Notes: generated by a model from the sequence alone, not told the origin. A stretch of 64,000 bases of DNA from an uncultured Candidatus Babeliaceae bacterium (GCA_963704655.1 OY969927.1:608001-672000); one strand, 5' to 3'. Counted from the stretch's first letter, positions 6,999 through 29,314 are shown. Numbers and translations: made by a program.

Positions 6999-8135
6999 AT
7001 GCAACTTTCTGCACTTATTATGTATCTTCCTTTTATCTTAGCTGGCGCCTTAGGTTTTGGATTTCTTGTTGGCTTTCATGAGCTAGGCCATTTTCTCTTT
7101 TGTAAGCTCTTTGGTGTAAAGACCCCTTCATTTTCTATTGGCTTTGGTCCACAACTTCTTAAAAAGAAGATTGGTGATACCATATTTACCCTTTCCGCTC
7201 TCCCTTTTGGCGGGTATGTTGAAATCGCGGGCTCGGAAGAACCTGGTCAAGGCGAACAAAAAGAAAGCAAAAGTACCGCTCCAGATTCTTTTGCCATTAA
7301 ACCTTATTACCAAAAAATGCTCATTATAGCTGGTGGCATCGTATTTAACTTAATCTTTGCCTATATAGCCGTTACGCTCGCGTTTATTCTTGGGGCGCCA
7401 AAAACACCACTTTTATTCCCCAATAGCGCAACATCCGACATCGAGACACTTGTAGAAGATTCAGCTGCTGCCCATGCAGGACTTGTTGTGGGCGACACTA
7501 TTGAAGGGATCAAAGCTGGAGATGAACTTTATGAGCTTACCAAGCTTCCTTTACCCGTCTTTATGCAAAAGCTCATGCAAACACTCAGCGCACAGCGTGG
7601 CAAAGAGGTTACCTTACGTATTACCCATCACGAAAGTTCCGAAGTTTCTACAACTCGTGACGTTACGGTAACATTAGGCGATAAAGGCCTTGGTGTTTCA
7701 TTCGAATTTCTCCCGGTCAAAGCAAGCAGCTTTATGCAAGCGCTTCAAATGGGTATTAAGCAAACTAATTTCTGGATCTTTTCAACCATAGATGCATTAA
7801 CCAAGCTTTTTAGAGAAAAATCGGTTAAAGGTATCGGCGGGCCGGTTATGGTTATTAGCCACATGGTCAAAGGCGCAGAAAAGGGTTTTGTAGTCTTTCT
7901 GCTCTTTTTAGCATTTATCTCCGTTAACCTTGCCGTTATGAATCTTATCCCATTACCGGTCTTTGATGGTGGTCAAGCACTTTTTTACACTATCGAAGCA
8001 ATAATGGGCAGACCGCTCCATGAAAACATCAGAAATGGCATTGCCTATGCAACGTGGGTGCTCTTATTAGCGCTGATCGTTTGGATTACCATCCAAGACA
8101 TTTTAGTTCTTGCCAAACCCTATTTTGGTTTATAA
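6999..8135 (+). CDS. rseP: Site-2 membrane zinc metalloprotease (M50, RseP-like) with PDZ-like region
   Basis: HELGH zinc motif, FSIGFGP, LPFGGYV, NLIPLPVFDGG. Confidence 0.9.
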   Translation: MQLSALIMYLPFILAGALGFGFLVGFHELGHFLFCKLFGVKTPSFSIGFGPQLLKKKIGDTIFTLSALPFGGYVEIAGSEEPGQGEQKESKSTAPDSFAIKPYYQKMLIIAGGIVFNLIFAYIAVTLAFILGAPKTPLLFPNSATSDIETLVEDSAAAHAGLVVGDTIEGIKAGDELYELTKLPLPVFMQKLMQTLSAQRGKEVTLRITHHESSEVSTTRDVTVTLGDKGLGVSFEFLPVKASSFMQALQMGIKQTNFWIFSTIDALTKLFREKSVKGIGGPVMVISHMVKGAEKGFVVFLLFLAFISVNLAVMNLIPLPVFDGGQALFYTIEAIMGRPLHENIRNGIAYATWVLLLALIVWITIQDILVLAKPYFGL

Positions 8136-8258
8136 AATCTTTAAAAAATCTCTTATTTGGGGGCTTTTCTTGCCCCCTTTTTCTTAAAACTCTTTATTTC
8201 ACACAACCTGATTAAGTATACTTAAAGTAATAAGTTATAATTTAAAAGAGAGTATACT

Positions 8259-9377
8259 ATGATATCAGCAAAAAACATTGCCCTTATTGTTGGGCTATTT
8301 ATAGCTTCAGCGCACCTATACTGCACAGAGAACACAAGAACACCTGAAGAAATACATGGCTATTATCTGAATCTGATCAATGAGGCTCAAGATCAAAACG
8401 ATTTGGGTGAAATTGATAACGCAAGAACACTTTATAACGAAATTATTACTACTCAAGAAGATATCCCCACTCAATTACGAAATTCAGCACGCCTTAAATT
8501 AGCCCAAATGCTGTTATACGGCTCCCCAAAAAGGCCTAATGAGGAAGAAACTGTGTATATTTTGGGACTTTTAAATGATATTGTTGAAAGCCCTCTTAAT
8601 CAAGTGGATATAAATGACTGGGCGCAAGCACATCTTATACTAGCAGACCTTTTATTGGCACACATTGATACATTGAAATTACAATCACCTGAGCATTATC
8701 ATGCAAACCTCGATTCTGCAATGGGGGATTATGTTTCTGTACTCGAACAACGACATAACTTAAAGCCGTGGATTGTTTATACTGCTGCAGTAAGATGCAT
8801 AGAGCTTGTTTATAACCATCCAATATTAACACAAAATATGCGTTCTAAGTTAAACTTTATGCTCGCTTACCGGTATATGGTCGATGCATATAACAATTTG
8901 TCAGATGAAGAAAAAGGAGATAGCACTATCCCTGGTATATTTGAGCTTAATACCATTCGAATTCATTATATACAACAACTTATAAAAGACGCTGACTATA
9001 CTCAGGCCCGTAAAGTATTAAACACTATTATTACAGCTCAAGATCCGAGCGTAGACCAAGCGACTAAAAACAAGGCTCGATTGCTTCTTGCTGAAACATT
9101 CACCATACAATCTAAATATACTCAAGCCCGTCAAATTTTAAACTATATTATTACTACTCAAAATCCAGAGGTAGATCAACCAACTAAAAATCGCGCACGC
9201 GTGATCCTGGCTGACATGAATCTACATGGCGAAGGATTGCCTAACAACGCGCCTGATATACCTGCAGCTAAAGAACTTTATAAAACAGTGGTAGAACAAG
9301 CTGAGATTAATATTATGGAAAATGACAAAAATAAAGCAGAACTTGCATTAAAGTTTATAAATAGGAAGAAGATATGA
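8259..9377 (+). CDS. Secreted TPR/Sel1-like helical repeat protein, paralog 1
   Basis: Signal-peptide-like N-terminus; C-terminal LADMNLHGEGLPNNAPDIPAAKELY Sel1-like motif; internal 40-aa repeat. Confidence 0.7.
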   Translation: MISAKNIALIVGLFIASAHLYCTENTRTPEEIHGYYLNLINEAQDQNDLGEIDNARTLYNEIITTQEDIPTQLRNSARLKLAQMLLYGSPKRPNEEETVYILGLLNDIVESPLNQVDINDWAQAHLILADLLLAHIDTLKLQSPEHYHANLDSAMGDYVSVLEQRHNLKPWIVYTAAVRCIELVYNHPILTQNMRSKLNFMLAYRYMVDAYNNLSDEEKGDSTIPGIFELNTIRIHYIQQLIKDADYTQARKVLNTIITAQDPSVDQATKNKARLLLAETFTIQSKYTQARQILNYIITTQNPEVDQPTKNRARVILADMNLHGEGLPNNAPDIPAAKELYKTVVEQAEINIMENDKNKAELALKFINRKKI

Positions 9378-10393
9378 AATTACTAAAACGCTTACTATCA
9401 TTAATGCTTCTCTTACTTGCTTATGCACCATCTGTTTCTTCCGCAGAAAGAACCATAACGCCACAAGAGCTTTTAGAACATTATAAGACTATGCTTGATG
9501 AAGCAATATGGCTAGATGGTGACAACAAAATCGATAAGGCCCGAGAACTCTATGAACGGATTATTTATAGCCCTTATCCATTGCCAATTTCTTTGCGTAC
9601 AAAAGCGGCTTATAATATGGCAGAGATGTTATACAATCAAAATAAAGTGCTAAAAACACCCTATAACAATATTATATATATTAGTGAACTGTTATCTTTT
9701 GTTACGAATGAACCTATTGAGACAATCGATTCAAACATCTGGGCTGATTCCCATCTTCTATTGGGCCAAATTGCTCTAGAAGGAGTGCTCACACCCGACC
9801 ATCAACCAGATGTTGCTTTTGCACGACAACACTTTTTTAAAATTTTTACCTTTAGAGCCAATCTAGACCCTTTGACTGTCTTTAAAGCTGCAATAACTTT
9901 GGCAGAGTATGTTTATGAAAATCCATCATTATTGGACCTTTATAGAATAAATATGTTGCTCGCTTACCGGTATATGATCGAAGCGTATGGTGCAACGCCT
10001 GACCACTATAAAAATGAAATCGATATGCCCGGTATCAACAAATATCCTATTGCTCGATTTCATTATGCACAGCAGCTTTTACAAGTGACTGGCATTTTTA
10101 ATAAAAGGGATAATTATATGCAAGCTCGCGAAATATTAAGCGATATCATAACCGTTCAAGACCCATATATAGATCAAAAAACTATAAACCGCGCACGGGT
10201 AATGCTTGCTGGCATGAATCTGCGTGGCGAAGGGTTACCTAATAATACGCCTGATATACCTGCGGCCAAAGAACTGTATAAAACCGTGCTCTCTCAGCCG
10301 AAAAATACTGTTATAAAAGAAGATATAACTAAAGCAAAAGTTGCACTGGATCTTATCAATCTGAATAGAAAACGAAAAAGAACAGAAGAATAA
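9374..10393 (+). CDS. Secreted TPR/Sel1-like helical repeat protein, paralog 2
   Basis: Signal peptide; LAGMNLRGEGLPNNTPDIPAAKELY; ends RKRKRTEE. Confidence 0.7.
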   Translation: MKLLKRLLSLMLLLLAYAPSVSSAERTITPQELLEHYKTMLDEAIWLDGDNKIDKARELYERIIYSPYPLPISLRTKAAYNMAEMLYNQNKVLKTPYNNIIYISELLSFVTNEPIETIDSNIWADSHLLLGQIALEGVLTPDHQPDVAFARQHFFKIFTFRANLDPLTVFKAAITLAEYVYENPSLLDLYRINMLLAYRYMIEAYGATPDHYKNEIDMPGINKYPIARFHYAQQLLQVTGIFNKRDNYMQAREILSDIITVQDPYIDQKTINRARVMLAGMNLRGEGLPNNTPDIPAAKELYKTVLSQPKNTVIKEDITKAKVALDLINLNRKRKRTEE

Positions 10394-10406
10394 AAAGGAA
10401 TAACTC

Positions 10407-11453
10407 ATGAAATTTCAAAAAAAATTACTATCGTTAATGCTTCTCTTACTTGCTTATGCACCAAATATATCATCAACAGAAAGAACCCAAACAGAACAAG
10501 AACTTTCAGACTATTATCATAATCTGCTTGAAGAAGCGATACTATTAGAAGAAAATGGAGGTATCGAGCAAGCAGAAGAAATATATAATGAAATCATTAC
10601 GAGTAACCAAGTACCAGAATTTTTACTCATTGAAGCATTAACCCACAAAGCAAAAATGCTCTATAATGCTTATGAGGGAAGCACTAATTATACGGAAAAA
10701 TTACCAAGCATTATTGAGCTTTTAAAAAATGTTGTTAACCACCCTGCAAAAGAAGAATATATACAATTTTGGGCAGAGGCGCATCTTTTATTAGCACAAA
10801 TATATCTTGATCTATTTGCAGAAAATAATGACCTTGCAAATATAAAATCAGCAATTAAACATTACGGTAGTATTTTAACAAGTCCCTTCACGATTGACCC
10901 AAAAATTACCTTTAAAGCAGCCCTTCATTACACTGAACTTGTCAATATATACTCTGATGATTTAGGTCTAAAAATTAATACTAGAATACCTTCAGAAATT
11001 ATGCTGGAAACATACTACAATATGATTCCACAAGAAGAAAGAAATAACGACATACCTTCCCAACTAGACCTTTTGCGTGTTCTGCTTCAAACAAAGCTTC
11101 GTACTGACCTTGCCATGGCCCAGCAACTTATTGTTTTACCACAGGTGAATAGCCCAATATCAAACGCTGTTCAAGCTCGTAAGCTATTAAATAACATTCT
11201 TATTGCTCCTTATAATGATTCATCAATCTTAAAAATCAAAAATCGAGCACGTCTTATTCTTGCCGGTATGAACTTACGCGGGCAAGGGCTGCCTAATAAT
11301 GCGCCTAATGTACCCGCTGCCACTGAGCTCTATCAGCTAGTCGCATCTCAACCAGAAGATTCAGTTATGAAAGGCGATAAAAATAAAGCAGCAGTTGCGC
11401 TGAATCTCATGAACCGCAATCAAAAACGCAAAAGAACAGAGATTGAAGAGTAA
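10407..11453 (+). CDS. Secreted TPR/Sel1-like helical repeat protein, paralog 3
   Basis: Signal peptide nearly identical to paralog 2; LAGMNLRGQGLPNNAPNVPAATELY; ends QKRKRTEIEE. Confidence 0.7.
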   Translation: MKFQKKLLSLMLLLLAYAPNISSTERTQTEQELSDYYHNLLEEAILLEENGGIEQAEEIYNEIITSNQVPEFLLIEALTHKAKMLYNAYEGSTNYTEKLPSIIELLKNVVNHPAKEEYIQFWAEAHLLLAQIYLDLFAENNDLANIKSAIKHYGSILTSPFTIDPKITFKAALHYTELVNIYSDDLGLKINTRIPSEIMLETYYNMIPQEERNNDIPSQLDLLRVLLQTKLRTDLAMAQQLIVLPQVNSPISNAVQARKLLNNILIAPYNDSSILKIKNRARLILAGMNLRGQGLPNNAPNVPAATELYQLVASQPEDSVMKGDKNKAAVALNLMNRNQKRKRTEIEE

Positions 11454-11498
11454 TTCAGGCTCTGTTTTCCAATAAAGAAATACATAATTCAAAGATAT

Positions 11499-11533
11499 AA
11501 AAAAAAGCCCCGATTATCTTCGGGGCTTTTTTT
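11499..11533. terminator. Bidirectional intrinsic terminator, GCCCCGA family
   Basis: A-tract GCCCCGA ttatct TCGGGGC T-tract. Confidence 0.85.
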
Positions 11534-11664
11534 ATAATAAGTGCTCAAAAGAATAATAATTAAAAAACTATATTTTCTTCAATATTTATGGCACTTTTGT
11601 TATAGTTAAATGACCGTTTACCAGTCGCACATAAAATATACACAACCAAAACAAAGGATGATTC

Positions 11665-12165
11665 ATGAAAAAACTTATTATGTTCACAAGCCTTTTATCG
11701 GTAAGTTCATTAATGATAGCAAAATCGACAGTGCCAACACCGCTAAAACCAGCGATAGTAGGTAAAGTTTACAGCACTTGCCAGCTCAAGCAATTGGAAA
11801 ATGCTGATAAACTCTGCGAACAAGGGAAGTTACTCGCCGCAGCGAAAGCGTTAGAAAATTTAAGCGTCGAAAAAAAGCATAAAAATAAGAAATTAAGAGA
11901 AATAGCGTCTGTGAAGTTATATTTGCTACGTAATGATGTTCGATATGTAGAACAAAAAGATTTAGAAAACAAAAAAATTGCTTCTCAGAGCAAGCAACTC
12001 TTGGGAAAATTAAATAAAGCACATGAGCTCGAACTTCAAGGCAAATATTCTAAAGCCGCTACACTTTATAAAGAACTCTCGCATGCGCCAAAACTTCACA
12101 TGGCAATACGAAACTCGGCAAGTCAGTTCCTAAATGAAATGCGCCAATCCGGACAAATTAAGTAA
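11665..12165 (+). CDS. Secreted helical protein (paralog of 13855..14349)
   Basis: Signal peptide; two TPR-like units (AD..C.QGKLLAAA; QGKYSKAATLYKELS). Confidence 0.7.
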   Translation: MKKLIMFTSLLSVSSLMIAKSTVPTPLKPAIVGKVYSTCQLKQLENADKLCEQGKLLAAAKALENLSVEKKHKNKKLREIASVKLYLLRNDVRYVEQKDLENKKIASQSKQLLGKLNKAHELELQGKYSKAATLYKELSHAPKLHMAIRNSASQFLNEMRQSGQIK

Positions 12166-12176
12166 TTTGAAACAAG

Positions 12177-12205
12177 AAAAGCCCCGAGAAATTCGGGGCT
12201 TTTTT
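12177..12205. terminator. Intrinsic terminator, GCCCCGA family
   Basis: AAAA GCCCCGA gaaat TCGGGGC TTTTTT. Confidence 0.85.
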
Positions 12206-12252
12206 ATTATAATAACTACGCCAATACACCTATGAATAAATAAAAAAAGCTA

Positions 12253-12282
12253 TTGCCTCTTTAATATATTTTCACTTATACT
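12253..12282 (+). promoter_or_regulatory. Sigma70-like promoter of the shared leader module (type A)
   Basis: TTGCCT-18 bp-TATACT; near-identical copy at ~14967-14996. Confidence 0.6.
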
Positions 12283-12321
12283 TAAAGTGCTAGGTATAAC
12301 AAATAAATATTAGGTGAATTT

Positions 12322-12702
12322 ATGAAAAACAAATTAATTATTTTAATGGGCCTTTTGAGCCTCAGTGTTCTCAATGCATCACAAGAACCCATTACCGTGG
12401 CATCGATCGCAGCTGCAAATAGACAATTTTTTTTGGGGAATCAACTCAGAAAAGCCGAAAACAGCACAACAAAAAAAGATGCACAAAAAATTGAAAAAAA
12501 AGAAAAACAACAAATAAAAGAAGCAAATCGCTTGACAGAGAGATTAGAGTCGGCAGATGAAAAACGCAAGAAGCATAAATATCCAGAAGCTGCCGCAATA
12601 TACCTAGAACTTAGTAGTAATTCTCAAGCCGCTTTCCATGTCATAACAGGCTTGGCCGCCCTGCACCTAAAAGAGATGCGTGATGCGGAACAAATTAAAT
12701 AA
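12322..12702 (+). CDS. Secreted protein, MKNKL-leader family; C-terminus resembles 11665/13855 family
   Basis: MKNKLIILMGLLSLSVLNA leader; KYPEAAAIYLELS...EMRDAEQIK. Confidence 0.7.
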   Translation: MKNKLIILMGLLSLSVLNASQEPITVASIAAANRQFFLGNQLRKAENSTTKKDAQKIEKKEKQQIKEANRLTERLESADEKRKKHKYPEAAAIYLELSSNSQAAFHVITGLAALHLKEMRDAEQIK

Positions 12703-12734
12703 AAAAAGCCCCGAGAAATTCGGGGATTTTTTTT
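12701..12734. terminator. Bidirectional terminator, GCCCCGA family
   Basis: A7 GCCCCGA gaaat TCGGGGA T-tract between convergent genes. Confidence 0.8.
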
Positions 12735-12751
12735 GCATTGTAAAAACCTGA

Positions 12752-13693
12752 TTATTTCTTCACGCTATTTTTCCAAAAGAAATTACTTGGCTTCTGGTTA
12801 TTTGGCCCCTCAAAATCAACAGGGTACAATATCCCTTTGTTTACGTGGTAATTTGGAGCGCTATTGTCCCATAAATTAGCATAATTTTTTACGATCTCAA
12901 ACTGACGTTTCATTTCAGGATCTTTCATGATCTCAGTATCATAAATGCTCCCTACAGCCCCAGCTATTGCACCACCAATGTTTTCTTCCACAATAACATA
13001 GTTGCCATCGCTTACTTCAGTCGGTCTGCCTGGAATATGAACTACATACATTTTTGGTAATCTAATGCGATCGAGGTTATATTTTTCAATTGCCTCTTTT
13101 ACCATTAACCAATAGGGCATACGGCTAATTGTTTGATACGTTTTCGGACCATAATCTTTAATAAATGCATCTAACTTCGCTTGCGGAAAATAGCGATCCT
13201 GATTGTCTGCGCCCATTTCATGTAATATATTTCCTCGCCTATTCCAATAACCAGCCGATTTTATCAACAAATCATCACCTAAACGTATCGTAAAATTTTG
13301 TATCATTGGATTTATACCCTGTGGCACTGCAGCCACTTGAATCCCCGCACGAGCTAAAGCTTGTCGCATTGCTTCAAAAAATAAGAGGTCCTGCGGCATA
13401 ATTTGATTAAAATTTATAGCATATGGAGCATGATTAGAAAAAGGTATTTTAGTATAATAGCTCTCACCAGAAAAGATGTATGCAAAATCAGGTTTCTGAG
13501 CAAAGAAATTCTGTACTTTTTGCTCGATATCTTGAGGAACCTTCGGGGCCAATTCTAAGATGTTCTCAGGCGTCATTGCCTGCCCATTATAGGTATAACT
13601 ACAATGAATATCGTTTGATTCTGCCGCGGCAAGATAACCAGGCAGCATTGCCGCCACTATTACAAGCAGCTGACTTATAGGTAAAATCTTCAT
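12752..13693 (-). CDS. Secreted protein with putative atypical protein-kinase-like fold
   Basis: Signal peptide; LLIK, YVIVEE, WDNSAPNY (DxxxxN) and VDFE motifs in kinase order. Confidence 0.55.
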   Translation of the reverse strand: MKILPISQLLVIVAAMLPGYLAAAESNDIHCSYTYNGQAMTPENILELAPKVPQDIEQKVQNFFAQKPDFAYIFSGESYYTKIPFSNHAPYAINFNQIMPQDLLFFEAMRQALARAGIQVAAVPQGINPMIQNFTIRLGDDLLIKSAGYWNRRGNILHEMGADNQDRYFPQAKLDAFIKDYGPKTYQTISRMPYWLMVKEAIEKYNLDRIRLPKMYVVHIPGRPTEVSDGNYVIVEENIGGAIAGAVGSIYDTEIMKDPEMKRQFEIVKNYANLWDNSAPNYHVNKGILYPVDFEGPNNQKPSNFFWKNSVKK

Positions 13694-13854
13694 ACACTAT
13701 CTCCATTACTATTAATTATTTAACTTATTATTTTAATTATAATTGACAAATAGAAAATAAGGCAACAGAGTGGATTAAAAATGCAAATTTTGTGATAATT
13801 TTGCTATAATTTAAGGGATCAGAGGCGCATTAACCAAATCAAAACAGGAGATTC

Positions 13855-14349
13855 ATGAAAAAACTTATTCTTATTATGAGCTTATTATCTTTTTGCTCAT
13901 TACTTATAGCCAGAGCACCGGTTACTTTATTACCAAAGCCAACTATAATAGCTAAAAGTTGGAATGATTTATGGCGCAAAGAATTATACAAAGCTGATAA
14001 ATTACGCAAAAATGGAGATTTACTTGCCGCAGCTGAAGCTTATAAAGCATTAAGCGCAAATAGACAGCATAGAGATGAAGAGATAAGTTCTCAAGCGTTA
14101 AAGCGATTAAATCAATTACTTAACAATCCTGATTATTGGGAACAAAAAGAGTTAAAAGACAAAAAACATGCTGAAGAAGGCAAGCGGCTCATGGAAAAAT
14201 TTCAGAGCGCAGATACACTCAGGCAACAAGGCAAATATGCAAAAGCAGCCGCACTGTATGAAGAATTACAAAATGCGCCGTATCCTCACTACTGGGCACA
14301 AAGCTGGGCCTCTCGTCTTTTAGAAGAGATGCGTAAGTCCAAACTATAA
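13855..14349 (+). CDS. Secreted helical protein (paralog of 11665..12165)
   Basis: MKKLILIMSLLS leader; GDLLAAAEAY, EQKEL..KK, QGKYAKAAALYEEL shared with 11665. Confidence 0.7.
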   Translation: MKKLILIMSLLSFCSLLIARAPVTLLPKPTIIAKSWNDLWRKELYKADKLRKNGDLLAAAEAYKALSANRQHRDEEISSQALKRLNQLLNNPDYWEQKELKDKKHAEEGKRLMEKFQSADTLRQQGKYAKAAALYEELQNAPYPHYWAQSWASRLLEEMRKSKL

Positions 14350-14392
14350 TATCCCCACCGACGGCACATCACAAAATAAACACACAAAACTA

Positions 14393-14422
14393 TTGCTTTT
14401 CAAGCATTATTATAACTATACT
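14393..14422 (+). promoter_or_regulatory. Sigma70-like promoter of the shared leader module (type B)
   Basis: TTGCTT-18 bp-TATACT; related copy at ~15518-15547. Confidence 0.55.
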
Positions 14423-14470
14423 TAATGATATAGGTATAATAATAACCAAATAACTGTATTAGGAGAATTA

Positions 14471-14746
14471 ATGAAAAACAAATTAATGATTTTAGCTGGC
14501 CTTTTTAGCTTAAGCGCTCTCAATGCAATGGAACCAGTTGCCCATGAAAGAAAAGCGATGCTAGAAGCAGTTACTTTAGCTAATTTAGAAGACATCATCC
14601 AACAAGCCCAAGCGCTTAAAGAACTTGTAAAGCGTACTGATGAACTTCCTAGGTCAATTGCAGATGAAATAGATGCAGCCAGAAGTATGTTGGAGCGTCA
14701 AGTTGACTTGTTGCAATCAACGGCTAACCGGTATCCAAAGAATTAA
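14471..14746 (+). CDS. Small secreted coiled-coil protein, MKNKL-leader family (paralog of 15596)
   Basis: MKNKLMILAGLFSLSALNAMEP; ends ANRYPKN like 15596; AGGAG RBS. Confidence 0.72.
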   Translation: MKNKLMILAGLFSLSALNAMEPVAHERKAMLEAVTLANLEDIIQQAQALKELVKRTDELPRSIADEIDAARSMLERQVDLLQSTANRYPKN

Positions 14747-14749
14747 GTA

Positions 14750-14793
14750 AAAAGCCCCGACCCTTCGACAAGCTCAGGATGATCGGGGCTTTT
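14750..14793. repeat. GCCCCGA terminator whose loop is replaced by a stem-loop repeat
   Basis: GCCCCGA [CCCTTCGACAAGCTCAGGATGA] TCGGGGC. Confidence 0.85.
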
Positions 14794-14825
14794 CTTTGAA
14801 CTTATTTATTAGATGGATCCTAAAA

Positions 14826-14920
14826 CCGCTAACCCTTCGACCCGTCTTCGCCAAGGCTACGCCGGGCAAGCAAGCCTTTAGTGCTGAGCCTGACGAAGCA
14901 TCAGGATGATCGGGGCTTTT
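14826..14920. repeat. Nested composite of three short palindromic repeats
   Basis: Outer CCGCTAACCCTTCGAC...AAGC...TCAGGATGATCGG interrupted by CCGTCTTCGCCAAGGCTACGCCGGGC and TGCTGAGCCTGACGAAGCA. Confidence 0.75.
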
Positions 14921-15035
14921 TACTATAATATCCGCACCAACACACCTATAAATATAAAAAAAGCTATTGCCTCTTTAATATATTTTAACTTATACTTAAA
15001 GCGCTAAGTATAACAAATAAATAGTAGGTGAATTT

Positions 15036-15431
15036 ATGAAAAATAAATTAATGATTTTAATGGGTATTTTGGGCCTCAGTATCCTTAATGCAATTGAGCA
15101 CCTTGGAACTGTATATGAACCCATGTCAGCAGAGCATAAAGATTTTTTGAAACGGCAAGATTATCGTGAAATATTAAACCCTCATAGTGACACTTATGAA
15201 ATGAGCTTATCTCAGCTTTTAAGAAATGCGGATATGCTATCTGGTCGAAGCACCATGCGAGAAGGCGGAAGAGTCGTGCGTCCTACTTTAACAGCCGAAG
15301 ATCAACAAATTGCTCGAAACATATACGACTTTGTACTTTCTTCGCCTCAAGATACTATAACTTTCCCTACCATACATTGGGCAACAGAAGGGCTTGAGCA
15401 TTTAAATTCACGTACACGTACTTTGAATTAG
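15036..15431 (+). CDS. Secreted protein, MKNKL-leader family, unrelated mature region
   Basis: MKNKLMILMGILGLSILNA; upstream ~115 bp nearly identical to that of 12322. Confidence 0.7.
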   Translation: MKNKLMILMGILGLSILNAIEHLGTVYEPMSAEHKDFLKRQDYREILNPHSDTYEMSLSQLLRNADMLSGRSTMREGGRVVRPTLTAEDQQIARNIYDFVLSSPQDTITFPTIHWATEGLEHLNSRTRTLN

Positions 15432-15595
15432 AAGATTGAGCAACTTAAAGAATTAACCAAATTTACTATAATATCCGCGCTAGCAGCGCACAGATAAAAT
15501 AAACAATACAAAAATCATTGATTTATGATCATTATTTTAACTATACTTAAAGATATAGATGCAATAATAACCAAATAACTGTATTAGGATAACTT

Positions 15596-15883
15596 ATGAA
15601 AAACAAATTAATGATTTTAGCTGGCCTTTTGAGCCTCAGTGTTCTTACTGCAATGGAACCATTACCCGAGCATGAGGCCAAAGTCGATTATGAAAATAGG
15701 GTATTACAAAAAATAGCCGAAATGGAAGACAATGCTCGAACACTTAGAGATCTTGTAAAGATTACTGATCGGCTTCCTAATGAAGTTGAAAATACATTGT
15801 ATACATTAGGGCAAATCAATGAAAAACTTGGATACCACATAAATAGGGTAAAAGAGTCTGCTAACCGATATCCAAAGAACTAA
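15596..15883 (+). CDS. Small secreted coiled-coil protein, MKNKL-leader family (paralog of 14471)
   Basis: MKNKLMILAGLLSLSVLTAMEP...LVK.TD.LP...ANRYPKN. Confidence 0.72.
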   Translation: MKNKLMILAGLLSLSVLTAMEPLPEHEAKVDYENRVLQKIAEMEDNARTLRDLVKITDRLPNEVENTLYTLGQINEKLGYHINRVKESANRYPKN

Positions 15884-15912
15884 AAAAAAGCCCCGAGAAA
15901 TACGGGGCTTTT
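15882..15912. terminator. Bidirectional terminator, GCCCCG family
   Basis: A8 GCCCCG agaaata CGGGGC TTTTT between 15596 and convergent rplM. Confidence 0.82.
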
Positions 15913-15929
15913 CTTTGATATTTGTTAAA

Positions 15930-15972
15930 TCCCTCGATACTTTCCCCTCCGGGGAACACTCGGGATGAGCGG
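15930..15972. repeat. Variant stem-loop repeat with inner hairpin, directly after the rplM stop
   Basis: TCCCTCGATAC [TTTCCCCTCCGGGGAAC] ACTCGGGATGAGCGG. Confidence 0.6.
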
Positions 15973-15973
15973 G

Positions 15974-16405
15974 TTAGGCCGCTTTTGTAACTTGTGCTTG
16001 ATGTGGATGTTCCGCACCAGCATAAACTTTTAATTTTTTGATAACTGCATCAGCAAGTTTAGTTTTAGGAAGCATGCCTTTAACAGCCTTCATAATAATT
16101 TCTTCTGGTTTGCGCGCCATCATCTGTTCAGCAGTAAGGGATTTAAGACCGCCCATATAGCCGGTATACCACTCATAGGTTTTACCTTTTAATTTGTTAC
16201 CGGTAAATACCACTTTATTAGCGTTAACTACAATAACATAGTCGCCTGAATCAGCATGCGGTGTATATTGCGCAGTGTCTTTGCCACGTAAAATATCAGC
16301 AATCTCAGTCGCAAGACGGCCTACAATTTTACCTTTAGCATCAATAACACGCCATTTAGGGGTATGTTTTTCACTACGAAGAAAAAACGTTTTATTCATA
16401 TCCAT
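15974..16405 (-). CDS. rplM: 50S ribosomal protein L13
   Basis: WRVIDAKGKIVGRLA, YTPHADSGDYVIVVNA, AVKGMLPK, LKVYAGAEHPHQAQ; start 16405 or 16399. Confidence 0.96.
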   Translation of the reverse strand: MDMNKTFFLRSEKHTPKWRVIDAKGKIVGRLATEIADILRGKDTAQYTPHADSGDYVIVVNANKVVFTGNKLKGKTYEWYTGYMGGLKSLTAEQMMARKPEEIIMKAVKGMLPKTKLADAVIKKLKVYAGAEHPHQAQVTKAA

Positions 16406-16563
16406 ATTAAGTACCTTAGAAAATAGTGCGCTCAGCGCATTATAGTGTGTTAAAAACACACCGCTTATGTTATACTGCTTAAAAACTTACGTGGGTATTA
16501 CTCACTGTATTAAAAAATAGCCATTCAGTCAACTACAAATAGAACTTTCCCTAAAGGGTTTTT

Positions 16564-18238: not shown

Positions 18239-18664
18239 ATGATAAAAAAACTAACATTTTTATTATTGTGCATGAATACACAAATCTTTACGTGTGAAAA
18301 AGCAGAGAAAGAAAGAGCTTTAACACTTCAAATTAAAAATCTATTAAGTGCCGGTGAAATGCCTAAAGAACCATTTAAACATTGGTGCAAGTTACACTTG
18401 AATACATTTAAAGAATCTAAGCATGAGCCCTTACAAACAATAGGTTTGACCTTAGAGCAAATACTTGCTGGCAGTATACCTAACCCACTGAGAGTCTTGG
18501 ACGAATTTAAAGAAGCAGCTAAAGTACATCATGATAATGTAGATATAAACACTGAAAAATTACCTTACATGCTCACTGAAGGGACAAAGTGGTATTTTAA
18601 AGATAGTTGGTTTTTTTCTTTATTCACAAGATCAAAAGGAAATGGGGATACGCATGAAAAATAA
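18239..18664 (+). CDS. Secreted hypothetical protein (paralog of 18654)
   Basis: Signal peptide; IKNLLS.G.MP..PF..W and GTKWYF shared with next ORF. Confidence 0.65.
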   Translation: MIKKLTFLLLCMNTQIFTCEKAEKERALTLQIKNLLSAGEMPKEPFKHWCKLHLNTFKESKHEPLQTIGLTLEQILAGSIPNPLRVLDEFKEAAKVHHDNVDINTEKLPYMLTEGTKWYFKDSWFFSLFTRSKGNGDTHEK

Positions 18665-19118
18665 ACTTTTATTATTTTATAGCTTACCAATACTATTTAT
18701 TTCTAATGACCTTAACTGTCCAATCAAATCGAAAAATAGCGTAAGCACTGCAAGCAAAAATACGCAAGCCACGTTACCAAAAAATGCACAAACTAATTCG
18801 CAAGAAGCTGTTATTATCGACGAGATAAAATCGCTTTTAGCCCATGGCAAAGTACCGAGTTTAAGCTTTAATGAATGGGTCGATACGCACACACCCATTT
18901 TATTAAAATCAGATAAGGATGCCGTCAAAAAACTAGGCGAAACCTTACAAGCAATACGCAAAGGGGACACTGCAAAAATAAGCGCCTTTAAAGTTCTTCC
19001 AAATTTTGAAAAAGCCGTACAAGAGTACGACTCAAAATTCCGCATCAGCATGCTTTCAAAGCCGATAATTATCGCAAAAGGGACCTACTGGTATTTCTCT
19101 GCGCCTAAGAAAAAATAG
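18654..19118 (+). CDS. Secreted hypothetical protein (paralog of 18239)
   Basis: Start MKNKLLLFYSLP at 18654 after GGGGA; IKSLLAHGKVP...GTYWYF; ends PKKK. Confidence 0.65.
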   Translation: MKNKLLLFYSLPILFISNDLNCPIKSKNSVSTASKNTQATLPKNAQTNSQEAVIIDEIKSLLAHGKVPSLSFNEWVDTHTPILLKSDKDAVKKLGETLQAIRKGDTAKISAFKVLPNFEKAVQEYDSKFRISMLSKPIIIAKGTYWYFSAPKKK

Positions 19119-19206
19119 TAATAATTATAAAAAAATCTCGACTTACTAAGAGTTGATGTTCTACTTTAAGTATAAATCTTCTAGAACTTTTACGTTAAGG
19201 GCCTTT

Positions 19207-19581
19207 ATGGAACTCAAATATCTTGTTGCCATTGCAGTATTTTTTTTACTAAATAACAATTTACAGGGGATGAACATCCTCCAAACAGCCGGTGCATACG
19301 CTAAAACCCCAGCGGCCATAGCAGGCGCGGTTGGCATAGTCTATGCAACCCCAATAGCTACAAAACTCACTCTTGCTGGACTCCATAAACTGTTTACAAA
19401 AACAAATATGGCTATTCAAACTCAATGTGAAAAGATGGAGATGGGGGATGCCGCAGCGTTTATACAAAACTACCAAAACGTAATAGATGGTATGAATAAT
19501 GATTATTTCACCGTTGGCGCATCGGCTCTTGCTACATATCTTGCTCTTCTTGGCTATATTATTGCAGTATGTCCTCGATAA
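19207..19581 (+). CDS. Secreted/membrane hypothetical protein
   Basis: Start MELKYL after AAGGG; signal peptide and two hydrophobic segments. Confidence 0.6.
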   Translation: MELKYLVAIAVFFLLNNNLQGMNILQTAGAYAKTPAAIAGAVGIVYATPIATKLTLAGLHKLFTKTNMAIQTQCEKMEMGDAAAFIQNYQNVIDGMNNDYFTVGASALATYLALLGYIIAVCPR

Positions 19582-26655: not shown

Positions 26656-27090
26656 TTATTTTTCAATTTCGCCATCCTCATCTATGATAATAGAGCGATT
26701 TGCTGATAAATAGCTCAAAACATTTACCTTTTTAAGGTTAGCAAGCTCAAGCCTTTCTTGTATTTTATCGCGCGGGTAGTCATAGAAAGTAAGAGTGAAT
26801 TTTTCAAAATCATTCATGAGATACGTCATATGAATAAGATACAACTTCTTAGCAGTTTGAATTGCCGGAAGTCTTACCTGATTTTCTGCAACGCTCTCTT
26901 CAAATAATTTAGCATACGTAAGCTCATACTTACAATCATGCTCAATCTCAATAGGTTTTCTTTCCTTTTTATTAAAGGGTAAAAACAGTTGTATATTTTT
27001 GTCACTCAAATTTAATATTTTAATTGTTTGATTCGGAGCATAAAGAATAGATACAAAAATACAACTTAAGACTATTACTAACTTCTTCAT
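26656..27090 (-). CDS. Secreted hypothetical protein
   Basis: MKKLVIVLSCIFVSILYA signal peptide; start 27090 or 27096. Confidence 0.6.
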   Translation of the reverse strand: MKKLVIVLSCIFVSILYAPNQTIKILNLSDKNIQLFLPFNKKERKPIEIEHDCKYELTYAKLFEESVAENQVRLPAIQTAKKLYLIHMTYLMNDFEKFTLTFYDYPRDKIQERLELANLKKVNVLSYLSANRSIIIDEDGEIEK

Positions 27091-27143
27091 ATTCATTTTT
27101 TTTTCCAAAAAAAAGCCCTCTGTTTAAGAGGGCTTAAATATCT

Positions 27144-27991: not shown

Positions 27992-29314
27992 TCATACTGT
28001 CTTCTTATTTTTCCCCAACCACCGATCCAGTATCACTGCAGCTGCCGAACGTACCGACAGATGGTTAAATGAAGAGAAACCCTCAAGTGGAACCAAGCGA
28101 TAATCGCATCGTTCCATCAATTCAGGAGTTAATCCCCTACCAGTGCCAAGCACAATCAAGACGGGCCGATCACAAGACCAGACCTTTTCTTGATCAAAAA
28201 AGGTAATCGATCCCGGATGAGTATCTGTTTTTGCCCCCGTAGCGACCAAAACAGGCGCTTTACCCTCACGCTGAGTGATCTGCGCGATAACATTTTCAAG
28301 GTTACTTTCTAATATAACATGGTTAAGTGCTTCATGACGATAGTTATTATAAGAAATTCCCGGACCCTCTTGCCAAAAGCCTAAAAGCGTCTTTACAATC
28401 GCCTGTTGATCAACAAGGGGGGTAACAATAAAATAATTTTTTAAACCGTATGTTATTGCAGAACGAGCAATATCATGAATATCAAGGGAGGTAACCGAAG
28501 TAGTACCAACTTTTGTGTTCACTTTATCTTCTGACACTAAAACTTCACTATGCATGAGTACCACATAATGATGCGGCAGATTTTTTTCCACCAGTCGTTC
28601 TTGCTCACTGGTAAACTCTGGATAACTTCGTACCCAATCAAAATGCTGCAACACCGATTCACGCGCAACCTCTTGCTGGCGCCAATCGGCAATAGCTTTA
28701 TGGTTCCCACTGCGCAGCAACTCAGGGACCTGGTGCCCTTTCCACTCAACAGGGGCAGTGTACTCTGGATAATCGACAAATGGCCCTGAAAAGGAATCCA
28801 ACTCAACCGACTCAGACTTACCAACTATAGCAGGAACAAAACGAAGCAGCCCTTCAAGAAAAACCATTGCCGGCACATCGCCACCCATCAAAACAAAGTC
28901 ACCGATTGAGACTATCTCATCGGCATATTCTGTTTCAATGCGCGCGTCCATGCCCTCATAACGCGCAGGCAGAAGCATCAAATGATCTTTTTCTTGAGCA
29001 TGCATGCGATCATAAATAGCGCGTAATGATTTTTGATTGAGTTTTTTTCCTCGAGGAGAAAAAAAGACCTTATACGCGCAACCATGCTGGGCTTCTATAT
29101 CAGTAACGGCGCGTTCGATAATCTCAGGCTTGATAACCATACCAGCACCATGGCCGAATGTAGGACCATCAATGCGCTGTTTAGGCTCTGCATAAGAAAA
29201 AAGATTATAGACATTCGTGTCAATGATGCGCTTTTCTCGAGCACGTTCCACCAAGCTTGTTGAAAAAAAAGGCTTATAGAGTTCAGGGAAAAGCGTAACA
29301 ACAGAGATTTTCAT
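27992..29314 (-). CDS. trmD: tRNA (guanine-N1)-methyltransferase TrmD fused to a second SPOUT (DUF2168-like) domain
   Basis: RYEGMDAR, SIGDFVLMGG, VPELLRSGNH; C-terminal TSLDIHDIARS...LGTGRGL...FNHLSVRSAAAVILDR. Confidence 0.92.
   Translation of the reverse strand: MKISVVTLFPELYKPFFSTSLVERAREKRIIDTNVYNLFSYAEPKQRIDGPTFGHGAGMVIKPEIIERAVTDIEAQHGCAYKVFFSPRGKKLNQKSLRAIYDRMHAQEKDHLMLLPARYEGMDARIETEYADEIVSIGDFVLMGGDVPAMVFLEGLLRFVPAIVGKSESVELDSFSGPFVDYPEYTAPVEWKGHQVPELLRSGNHKAIADWRQQEVARESVLQHFDWVRSYPEFTSEQERLVEKNLPHHYVVLMHSEVLVSEDKVNTKVGTTSVTSLDIHDIARSAITYGLKNYFIVTPLVDQQAIVKTLLGFWQEGPGISYNNYRHEALNHVILESNLENVIAQITQREGKAPVLVATGAKTDTHPGSITFFDQEKVWSCDRPVLIVLGTGRGLTPELMERCDYRLVPLEGFSSFNHLSVRSAAAVILDRWLGKNKKTV

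Follow-up and report, generated by a model that had tools for sequence, protein, structure and literature searches.

In mycoplasmas, the vsp, vpma, and vlp loci are made up of tandem genes in which a highly conserved block of 5′ untranslated region (UTR) and signal sequence is followed by variable bodies; the products are lipoproteins, and the loci are switched by a site-specific recombinase or by promoter switching. An array of related layout is described here from the Dependentiae, a group of protist parasites that have not been cultured or are difficult to culture and about whose secreted proteins, to our knowledge, almost nothing is known. The DNA analyzed (hereafter the window, a stretch of 64,000 nucleotides) comprises bases 608001–672000 of the single-contig genome (1,298,077 bp, 38% G+C) of an uncultured Candidatus Babeliaceae bacterium (Dependentiae). 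The array occupies window positions 11,499–15,912 and contains the genes C1, A1, K, C2, B1, A2, and B2, with the genes T0–T2 upstream. A1, B1, A2, and B2 share a leader and an MKNKL signal peptide, which are joined to mature parts (payloads) of different kinds. The array probably represents a rapidly evolving island, specific to this lineage, that encodes small helical proteins for export via Sec and was built by tandem duplication and by copying between the copies.

In Borrelia burgdorferi, OspE paralogs are stated to “share similar promoter sequences (UHB)” with OspF and others (PMC7002432). As far as that source describes the UHB/Erp system, its likeness to the array is one of design only, that is, exported-protein paralogs carry a similar promoter/upstream block and differ in their mature parts. 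Erps are lipoproteins encoded on cp32 prophage plasmids, whereas the signals of the array are devoid of a lipobox Cys (LNA is followed by S, M, or I); moreover, the array is chromosomal, forms one tandem set, and belongs to a member of the Dependentiae, and its common block takes in the whole signal and ends at the cleavage codon. The phytoplasma SVM signal (PF12113; SAP11, SAP54), as presented in PMC8026896, is comparable in that a conserved signal motif precedes secreted proteins that are otherwise unrelated, in a host-dependent bacterium with a reduced genome. The phytoplasma genes are dispersed in mobile-unit regions, whereas four copies lie in one array here; a Pfam scan for PF12113 (SVM_signal) returned no match in A1, A2, B1, and B2 at E values up to 1. 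From the mycoplasma loci, the array differs in that each gene has its own putative promoter and that no recombinase was found among the 62 window ORFs scanned.

Similar designs are described outside the bacteria. In the tandemly expanding mussel family MgCRP-I, the signal region is far more conserved than the mature part (PMC4558851), and frog skin peptides, as described, combine a conserved pre-region with a mature part that is hypervariable. These families differ from the array in being eukaryotic, in their exon structure and cysteine-rich peptides, and in their export biology. A literature search on signal-peptide paralogs of the Dependentiae found nothing relevant. The mechanism as such is not new: variable exported proteins with a conserved 5′ module are known from Borrelia, mycoplasmas, and phytoplasmas. 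By analogy, the array shares its design with Borrelia UHB/Erp, phytoplasma SVM, and the mycoplasma loci and is a member of none of them.

A common leader and signal module precedes four genes

An earlier reading of the DNA, made without database searches (the sequence-only reading), had placed a TATAAT-bounded leader, a promoter motif, a ribosome-binding site (RBS), and an MKNKL signal before four genes, and all of these elements were indeed found there. The genes starting at 12322 (A1), 14471 (B1), 15036 (A2), and 15596 (B2) have in common a leader of ∼115–135 nt and a 19-residue MKNKL signal peptide, which come in two subtypes. The A-type leader of A1 (12203–12321, plus strand) contains the TATAAT boundary at 12208, the −35-like TTGCCT at 12253, TATACTTAA at 12277, and the RBS TAGGTG; the A-type leader of A2 extends from 14919 to 15035 (plus strand), and its module is 88% identical to that of A1 over 174 nt. 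The B-type leaders are those of B1 (14340–14470) and B2 (15462–15595), both on the plus strand. Using a repeat finder, the A1 module (12240–12378) matched that of A2 (14954–15092) with 91% identity over 139 nt, and the B1 module (14386–14536) that of B2 (15511–15661) with 85% identity over 151 nt. The division into (A1,A2) and (B1,B2) is backed by 26 sites in the leader; the Jukes–Cantor (JC) divergence of the leaders is 0.26–0.36 for A versus B, compared with 0.10 for A1 versus A2.

The individual elements of the module are largely or entirely restricted to the array. The 24-nt boundary containing TATAAT is present in four copies (starting at 12203, 14340, 14919, and 15462). The −35/−10 pattern TTG[CA][CT]T-N17–19-TATACTTAA occurs six times in the genome, four of which are in the array, and all four genomic copies of ATGAAAAAYAAATTAAT are located there as well. 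Among the 6,516 open reading frames (ORFs) of at least 40 amino acids (aa) in the genome, four start with MKNK[LIM], namely, A1, B1, A2, and B2. Searching the genome with the 151-nt B leader or the 192-nt A leader retrieved the four local copies and, otherwise, one match of 26 nt (E = 0.0075). The sequence-only reading had cast the module as one that is recombined onto new payloads; contrary to this, it was found nowhere else in the genome nor, at the DNA level, in the five congeners searched.

Each of the four genes appears to be a self-contained unit with a predicted σ70-type promoter, a 5′ UTR of ∼30–40 nt, and an RBS. By inspection, the signal reads MKNK, then L(I/M)IL(M/A)G(L/I)(L/F)(S/G)LS(V/A/I)L(N/T)A, with S, M, or I as the next residue, which conforms to the pattern for Sec and signal peptidase I (basic n-region, hydrophobic h-region, and a small residue at −1). 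In A1, A2, B1, and B2, the region around the cleavage site is free of a lipobox Cys. Export via Sec and cleavage by signal peptidase I after LNA or LTA are, thus, predicted for all four proteins. An inverted repeat, TTATAC-N12-GTATAA, spans the −10 box of A1 and A2. It is not proposed to be an operator or an RNA hairpin because it is not conserved in B2, nor in the two relatives of the module identified elsewhere (see below), the nearest congener of the genome library (G004; NhaC 82% identical; G001, G002, and G003 are further congeners) and a metagenome contig of 1,845 nt (L035).

Homology ends at the signal-cleavage codon

In a 30-nt sliding window, identity between A1 and A2 is 80–100% from −119 to ∼+45 relative to the ATG and has dropped to the background of ∼45% by +60, the cleavage codon. 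The last codon common to both genes encodes the Ala of LNA, and sites unique to A1 start at +58. The place of the breakpoint relative to the cleavage site, to which the sequence-only reading had drawn attention, is therefore the cleavage codon itself. That the near-identical leaders of the genes at 12322 and 15036 (91% over 139 nt, see above) are followed by unrelated mature regions was likewise borne out: a Smith–Waterman (SW) comparison of the A1 and A2 mature parts gave z = −1.2, with 194 of 200 shuffles scoring as high. Whereas the leaders of the two genes differ by a JC distance of 0.10, the synonymous sites of their “aligned” mature parts are saturated. Conservation equal to that of the promoter extends over the ∼50 nt located 5′ of the −35 box (80–90% identical between A1 and A2).

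The contrast between signal and body recurs in some other pairs of paralogs. For B1 and B2, the divergence at synonymous sites (dS) is 0.31 in the signal, but 0.78 in the mature part, where that at nonsynonymous sites (dN) is 0.70. For T1 and T2 (9374–11453), dS is 0.31 in the signal versus 2.18 in the body; no such contrast was observed for C1 and C2 (1.13 versus 0.90). As the signals of T1 and T2 are far more alike than their bodies, homogenization of the 5′ end would also reach operon paralogs that lack a leader of their own. Pairwise comparison of nine MKNKL proteins (36 pairs), which stem from at least three organisms plus library representatives, resulted in a mean identity of 75% for the signal versus 31% for the payload. 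An evolutionary uncoupling of the promoter/RBS/signal module from the payloads is supported by these comparisons of sequence.

One short patch departs from the subtype pattern. Over +28 to +50, B2 is identical to A1 (23 nt) and shares three to four clustered states with A1 and A2, whereas B1 keeps the state found in G004 and L035. The grouping of B2 with A1 and A2 in this patch contradicts that of the leaders as (A1,A2) and (B1,B2).

Three kinds of payload under one signal

The MKNKL module heads three kinds of payload, all encoded on the plus strand: a C-type body in A1 (12322–12702), an orphan single-helix body in B1 (14471–14746; 91 aa) and B2 (15596–15883; 95 aa), and a third body in A2 (15036–15431; 131 aa). 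The C-type body is that of C1 (11665–12165, plus strand), a predicted secreted helical-hairpin protein of 166 aa with an MKKLI-type signal, and of C2 (13855–14349, plus strand; 164 aa). In A1, the MKNKL signal (codons 1–19) is followed by a short version of it without the first hairpin. The mature part of A1 resembles C1 (SW z = 7.7) and C2 (z = 10.3), with none of 200 shuffles scoring as high in either case, which corroborates the match of its C terminus to this family as seen in the sequence-only reading. The hidden Markov model (HMM) of the C family matched the signal of A1 with E = 1.2e-17 and its C-terminal part with E = 3.7e-24, and the C-terminal motif of the family, A(D/R)xxRxxGKYxxAxxxYxxL ... 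LxxM(R)xxGQ, is present in A1. This motif is absent from B1, B2, and A2, of which the signal alone aligns. An AlphaFold2 model of C2 (mean predicted local distance difference test score, pLDDT, 85.3) shows six helices arranged in hairpins after the signal. When it was compared with the PDB using Foldseek, tetratricopeptide repeat (TPR) proteins (SycD, PcrH, AIP) led the list, but weakly (best E = 0.098, TM score 0.2–0.36); matches to Pfam TPR_16 were below the cut-off of 32.7 bits, with 18.9 bits for C2 and 16.6 bits for A1.

The bodies of B1 and B2 are related to each other (SW z = 14–17), and that of B1 was modeled with AlphaFold2 as a single long helix spanning residues 26–87 (pLDDT 73.8). 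Pairing of the B with the C alignment in hhalign was limited to 21 signal columns. The dN/dS ratio for B1 and B2 is ∼0.9, from which it follows that these payloads drift fast and nearly neutrally. B2 had no match in 40 relatives, and a word-seeded search of 5.8 billion protein clusters with B2 or A2 returned the query alone. That the B and A2 bodies arose from a C-type one by frameshift was considered and rejected as unsupported: HMMs of the short and full C payloads scored no more than 2.8 bits against any of the three forward frames of the payload DNA of B1, B2, and A2; DNA-level local alignment of the B and A2 with the C bodies, using codon shuffles, yielded nothing (z ≤3.4); and the similarity of B1 frame +1 to the short form in G002 (SW z = 3.6) is within multiple-testing noise.

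An open frame of 112 codons, as in A2, has a chance of 4.6e-4 to occur at this base composition, and A2 is, therefore, probably a real gene. A language-model atlas gave no usable match for it. Its body is collinear with, and weakly similar to, the last third of T1 (SW z = 6.3–6.7) and the T-like protein of L035 (z = 4.7). As this likeness could not be confirmed by BLASTP (no match) or by profile methods (hhalign probability 2–3%; E = 7 for the T HMM among the 6,516 ORFs), A2 as a C-terminal third of T is kept as a weak lead.

T0, T1, and T2 (8259–11453, plus strand) are tandem paralogs of 372, 339, and 348 aa with signal peptides, are apparently cotranscribed, and are 36–41% identical to each other. 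The word-seeded search of 5.8 billion clusters with T1 returned T0 alone. Comparison of the T and C families in hhalign resulted in a probability of 80.5% (E = 1.3e-5) over 81 columns including the signal, and the C-family HMM matched T0, T1, and T2 with E values of 2.2e-5, 0.0034, and 0.025, respectively. As judged from these profiles, the T and C families are remotely related at their N termini. T1 and T2 end in a basic, nuclear localization signal-like tail of the KRKR(T)E type (10370–10393 and 11420–11453), as do the C-terminal ORF of a T-like gene in G004 (L030 5518–5540) and a 108-aa protein of G001 (L039 880–908); the C terminus of A2 is a degenerate SRTRT.

The slot of B1 is occupied by a C-type body in a relative

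Searching with a degenerate pattern of the signal-coding DNA retrieved one metagenome contig, L035, and the contig of G004. The promoter region of the MKNKL gene of G004 is recognizably homologous, and the gene is flanked on either side by a GCCC(C/G)GG-stem terminator. On L035, the 3′ end of a C2-like gene is followed, without a terminator, by a leader and by MKNKLMILAGLLSLSALNAME joined to a short C-type body (116 aa); after a terminator, a similar leader and MKKQLAILLTTASCLSLNAME joined to a T-like body ensue. The signal-coding DNA of the 116-aa gene is identical to that of B1 at 59 of 63 nt, and the flanks correspond to the window with 70% identity in the C2-like coding tail and 72% in the intergenic DNA. 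By this comparison, the slot of B1 holds a C-type body on L035, headed by a nearly identical signal.

A profile search of 1.84 billion representatives resulted in 32 proteins, long multi-stretch proteins among them. The 16 that were examined included short C-type MKNKL forms (P0008, P0013, P0016, and the more distant P0019), but also full-length C forms with other signals. Using the C profile, 6 of 41 family genomes matched, including G000 itself, three congeners, and two weak matches. MKNKL combined with a C-type body (the G004 orthologue, P0008, P0013, and P0016) is a widespread and probably ancestral arrangement, which speaks against A1 being a recent chimera.

Four DNA sequencing runs yielded short contigs of low depth, many of them identical to the window and none spanning the array. 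In one contig of run X4, 15567 is joined to 14448, which puts a B2-like leader before a B1-like body. It was not used as evidence; the joint has a depth of 3.3, a side of 52 nt, and 85% likeness, and may reflect leader similarity in a related strain.

Recurrent terminators close the cassettes

The recurrent GCCCCG/CGGGGC terminators of the sequence-only reading were recovered as four copies of a 36-nt repeat (starting at 11497, 12170, 12697, and 15879) and a fifth one at 14754, which is genuine but split by 149 nt. A GCCCCG-stem terminator follows T2 (11500–11533). The terminator after C1, GCCCCGAGAAATTCGGGGC (12177–12203), is an exact stem-loop of a type present three times in the genome, each time in the array locus; likewise, all three genomic copies of GCCCCGAGAAAT[TA]CGGGG are at this locus. 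The terminator after A1 (12709–12725) is bidirectional with respect to K, and GCCCCGAGAAATACGGGGC follows B2 (15886–15912). In the terminator of B1 (14746–14924), the loop is enlarged by a GC-rich dispersed repeat; the arms, 14746–14760 and 14910–14924, are 100% complementary and 149 nt apart. The 23-nt core of this insert (14760–14782) has more than 40 copies genome-wide, and a 107-nt stretch of it is 86% identical to genome positions ∼1164781–1164887.

Thus, one type of terminator is found 3′ of C1, A1, B1, and B2, and the genes of G004 and L035 are flanked by similar ones. No terminator is present 3′ of A2 or of C2, the stop codon of which lies within the TATAAT boundary of the B1 leader; because of this absence, C2–B1 and A2–B2 may be read through. 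Promoter function and rho-independent terminator function are predicted for the respective elements.

Origin of the array

Which process could have placed one leader and signal before such different bodies? One answer is that a portable promoter/RBS/signal block was repeatedly put before unrelated coding sequences by illegitimate or homologous recombination. The sharp breakpoint between A1 and A2 at the cleavage codon, the three kinds of payload under one signal, and the similar leader of the T-like gene on L035 are what such shuffling would produce, as is the slot after the C2-like gene, which contains a C-type body on L035 and an orphan B body here, under signals that are 94% identical. The weak, collinear likeness between the A2 body and the T paralogs in their C-terminal third (SW z = 6.3–6.7 with T1, 4.7 with the L035 protein) would also fit, but failed the profile tests (2–3% in hhalign, E = 7 with the HMM). 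However, no recombinase was found among the 62 window ORFs scanned, the module is confined to one locus in the genome, MKNKL is commonly joined to a C-type body elsewhere, and the terminators at the 3′ ends are homologous too, as duplication of whole cassettes would give. We consider an origin by shuffling rather unlikely. Somewhat less credible still is purely vertical divergence from one ancestral body, in which leader and signal are alike through selection alone and no recombination takes place between copies. The signal is indeed conserved across organisms, beyond what conversion within one genome can explain, payloads drift fast (dN/dS of ∼0.9 for B1 and B2), the flanks of the cassettes are homologous on both sides, and T and C are remotely related. 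Selection is, on the other hand, unlikely to act on every base of the ∼50 nt 5′ of the −35 box, which are 80–90% identical in A1 and A2; identity falls abruptly at +57 instead of following a gradient; the mosaic patch is common to A1, A2, and B2, and absent from B1; and neither DNA nor protein comparison detected any residual similarity between the C bodies and those of B or A2.

Tandem variable genes with a common 5′ block also bring to mind programmed phase or antigenic variation, as in mycoplasma vsp/vpma-type or pilin-type cassette systems, in favor of which the low-depth X4 contig with its B2-like leader and B1-like body could be cited. Here, each gene has its own putative promoter and RBS, promoterless silent copies are lacking, neither an invertible element nor inverted repeats flanking the promoters were found, no site-specific recombinase was found in the ORFs scanned, and the leader–body joint in the metagenome run X4 (52-nt side, 85% likeness) was flagged as unreliable, all of which makes a switching system highly improbable. 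This bears on the sequence-only reading, which had inferred a diversification locus with a recombined expression/export module. What stands of it is that the history of the module differs from that of the payloads; a dedicated diversification locus is argued against by the individual promoters, the absence of silent cassettes and of inverted repeats bracketing promoters, and the failure to find a recombinase. Its statement that the window is devoid of a recombinase agrees with the Pfam scan, in which none of the 62 ORFs matched a recombinase, integrase, or transposase family (ORFs below ∼90–130 aa were scanned in part).

Tandem duplication with copying between the copies is, thus, the origin that we favor. 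Whole cassettes, each composed of TATAAT boundary, promoter, 5′ UTR, RBS, 19-residue MKNKL signal, payload, and GCCCCG-stem terminator, would have been copied in tandem; as the cassettes are homologous at both flanks, one ancestral cassette and its tandem duplication is the simplest assumption. The 5′ module would have been kept alike by purifying selection on the signal sequence, which is suggested by the conservation of the signal between organisms, and by short gene-conversion tracts passing between the copies within the genome. Gene conversion as the copying process is suggested by the patch in B2. The payloads, in turn, would have been subject to internal deletion (A1 and the short C forms), rapid and near-neutral divergence, and replacement in at least one slot, those of the B1 slot and of A2 having been either replaced or diverged beyond all recognition. 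Tandem duplication and gene conversion, together with selection acting on the signal, account for the data, and no special mechanism needs to be invoked.

Some points weigh against this origin. No relative of the B and A2 payloads was detected with the C and T profiles, in the forward frames, or by comparison of DNA; for them, divergence from a common cassette and replacement by foreign or de novo bodies are, thus, equally possible. Furthermore, the evidence for conversion consists of one short patch with three to four sites. The locus may represent a case in which, under a signal that stayed fixed, a payload was replaced or a gene was born. A more far-reaching, and in our view improbable, proposal is that the MKNKL block is a sequence-constrained, lineage-specific export/expression tag of the genus, which marks proteins sent to the protist host, and that the ancestral C-type body in the fixed slot after C2 was replaced by a newborn single-helix protein, B, which was then duplicated. 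In that case, the array would exemplify in nature how new secreted proteins can emerge behind a promoter and signal that were already in place; if the tag serves export to the host, MKNKL would be functionally comparable to the phytoplasma SVM signal. The KRKR-rich C-terminal tails of the T-type proteins could be host nuclear-targeting signals.

Irrespective of how the array came about, the MKNKL leader and signal constitute a compact, recognizable tag for genus-specific exported small helical proteins and, as such, a lead for annotation. The window encodes a T2SSE ATPase and signal peptidase I (LepB, PF10502), and two secretins are encoded elsewhere in the genome; onward release beyond the periplasm via secretin-dependent machinery is, therefore, possible. 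From the lifestyle of the group, a host-directed or an envelope role may be supposed.

A hypervariable interval between M50 and rplM

The array is part of an interval with conserved borders. On the left is the gene for an M50 (RseP-like) protease (6999–8135, plus strand; Pfam PF02163, E = 1.1e-55), which is 79–90% identical at the aa level in the three congener loci containing it (G004, G003, and G001); on the right is rplM (15974–16459, minus strand; PF00572, E = 9e-46), with 81–94% identity in five congeners. The interval in between (window positions 8136–15973) is hypervariable within the genus, ranging from ∼500 bp in G003, where it contains no gene, to ∼7.7 kb in G004. In G001, a K homolog is the sole gene between M50 and rplM, and in G002 (a short contig), K adjoins rplM. 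The interval of G004 contains one MKNKL gene, the C-type body of which is full-length (159 aa), three genes for K, one T-like gene, a C-like gene that is split and has an MKKII signal, and two further genes of 201 and 238 aa. The locus shows how the repertoire changes between close relatives. The T-like gene (L030 5518–6817) and the MKKII C-like gene (L030 6949–7426) of G004 consist of two ORFs each, which pseudogenization or errors in a metagenome-assembled genome could explain.

Within the array, the gene order is C-A-K(reverse)-C-B-A-B, which is the order that the sequence-only reading had given. K (12752–13693, minus strand) encodes a secreted protein of 313 aa without a known family and is located at the same site in four of five congeners. 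It had no match in Pfam or NCBIfam nor a sequence match in the PDB; its nearest language-model clusters are Chlamydiota hypothetical proteins (0.95), a Kinase-PolyVal cluster scores 0.91, and “kinase-like” is, therefore, to be taken as a lead from a language-model match. K has one distant paralog in the genome (780040–781170, 29% identity), and its three copies in G004 are in tandem.

Some further features of the window were observed outside the array. An Rfam scan of the window returned two tRNAs alone, with no match in the leaders. X1–X3 are three small paralogous ORFs 3′ of NhaC (18239–19581), the number of which varies among congeners, so that variable small-protein families are present on both sides of rplM-nhaC. 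A 150-aa ORF (26656–27108, minus strand) matches the C-family profile with its positions 1–98 (E = 0.0011 among the 6,516 ORFs) and may be a distant member of that family outside the array. Finally, at 27992–29314 (minus strand), a single ORF of 440 aa joins the domains TrmD (tRNA m1G methyltransferase) and Methyltrn_RNA_4.

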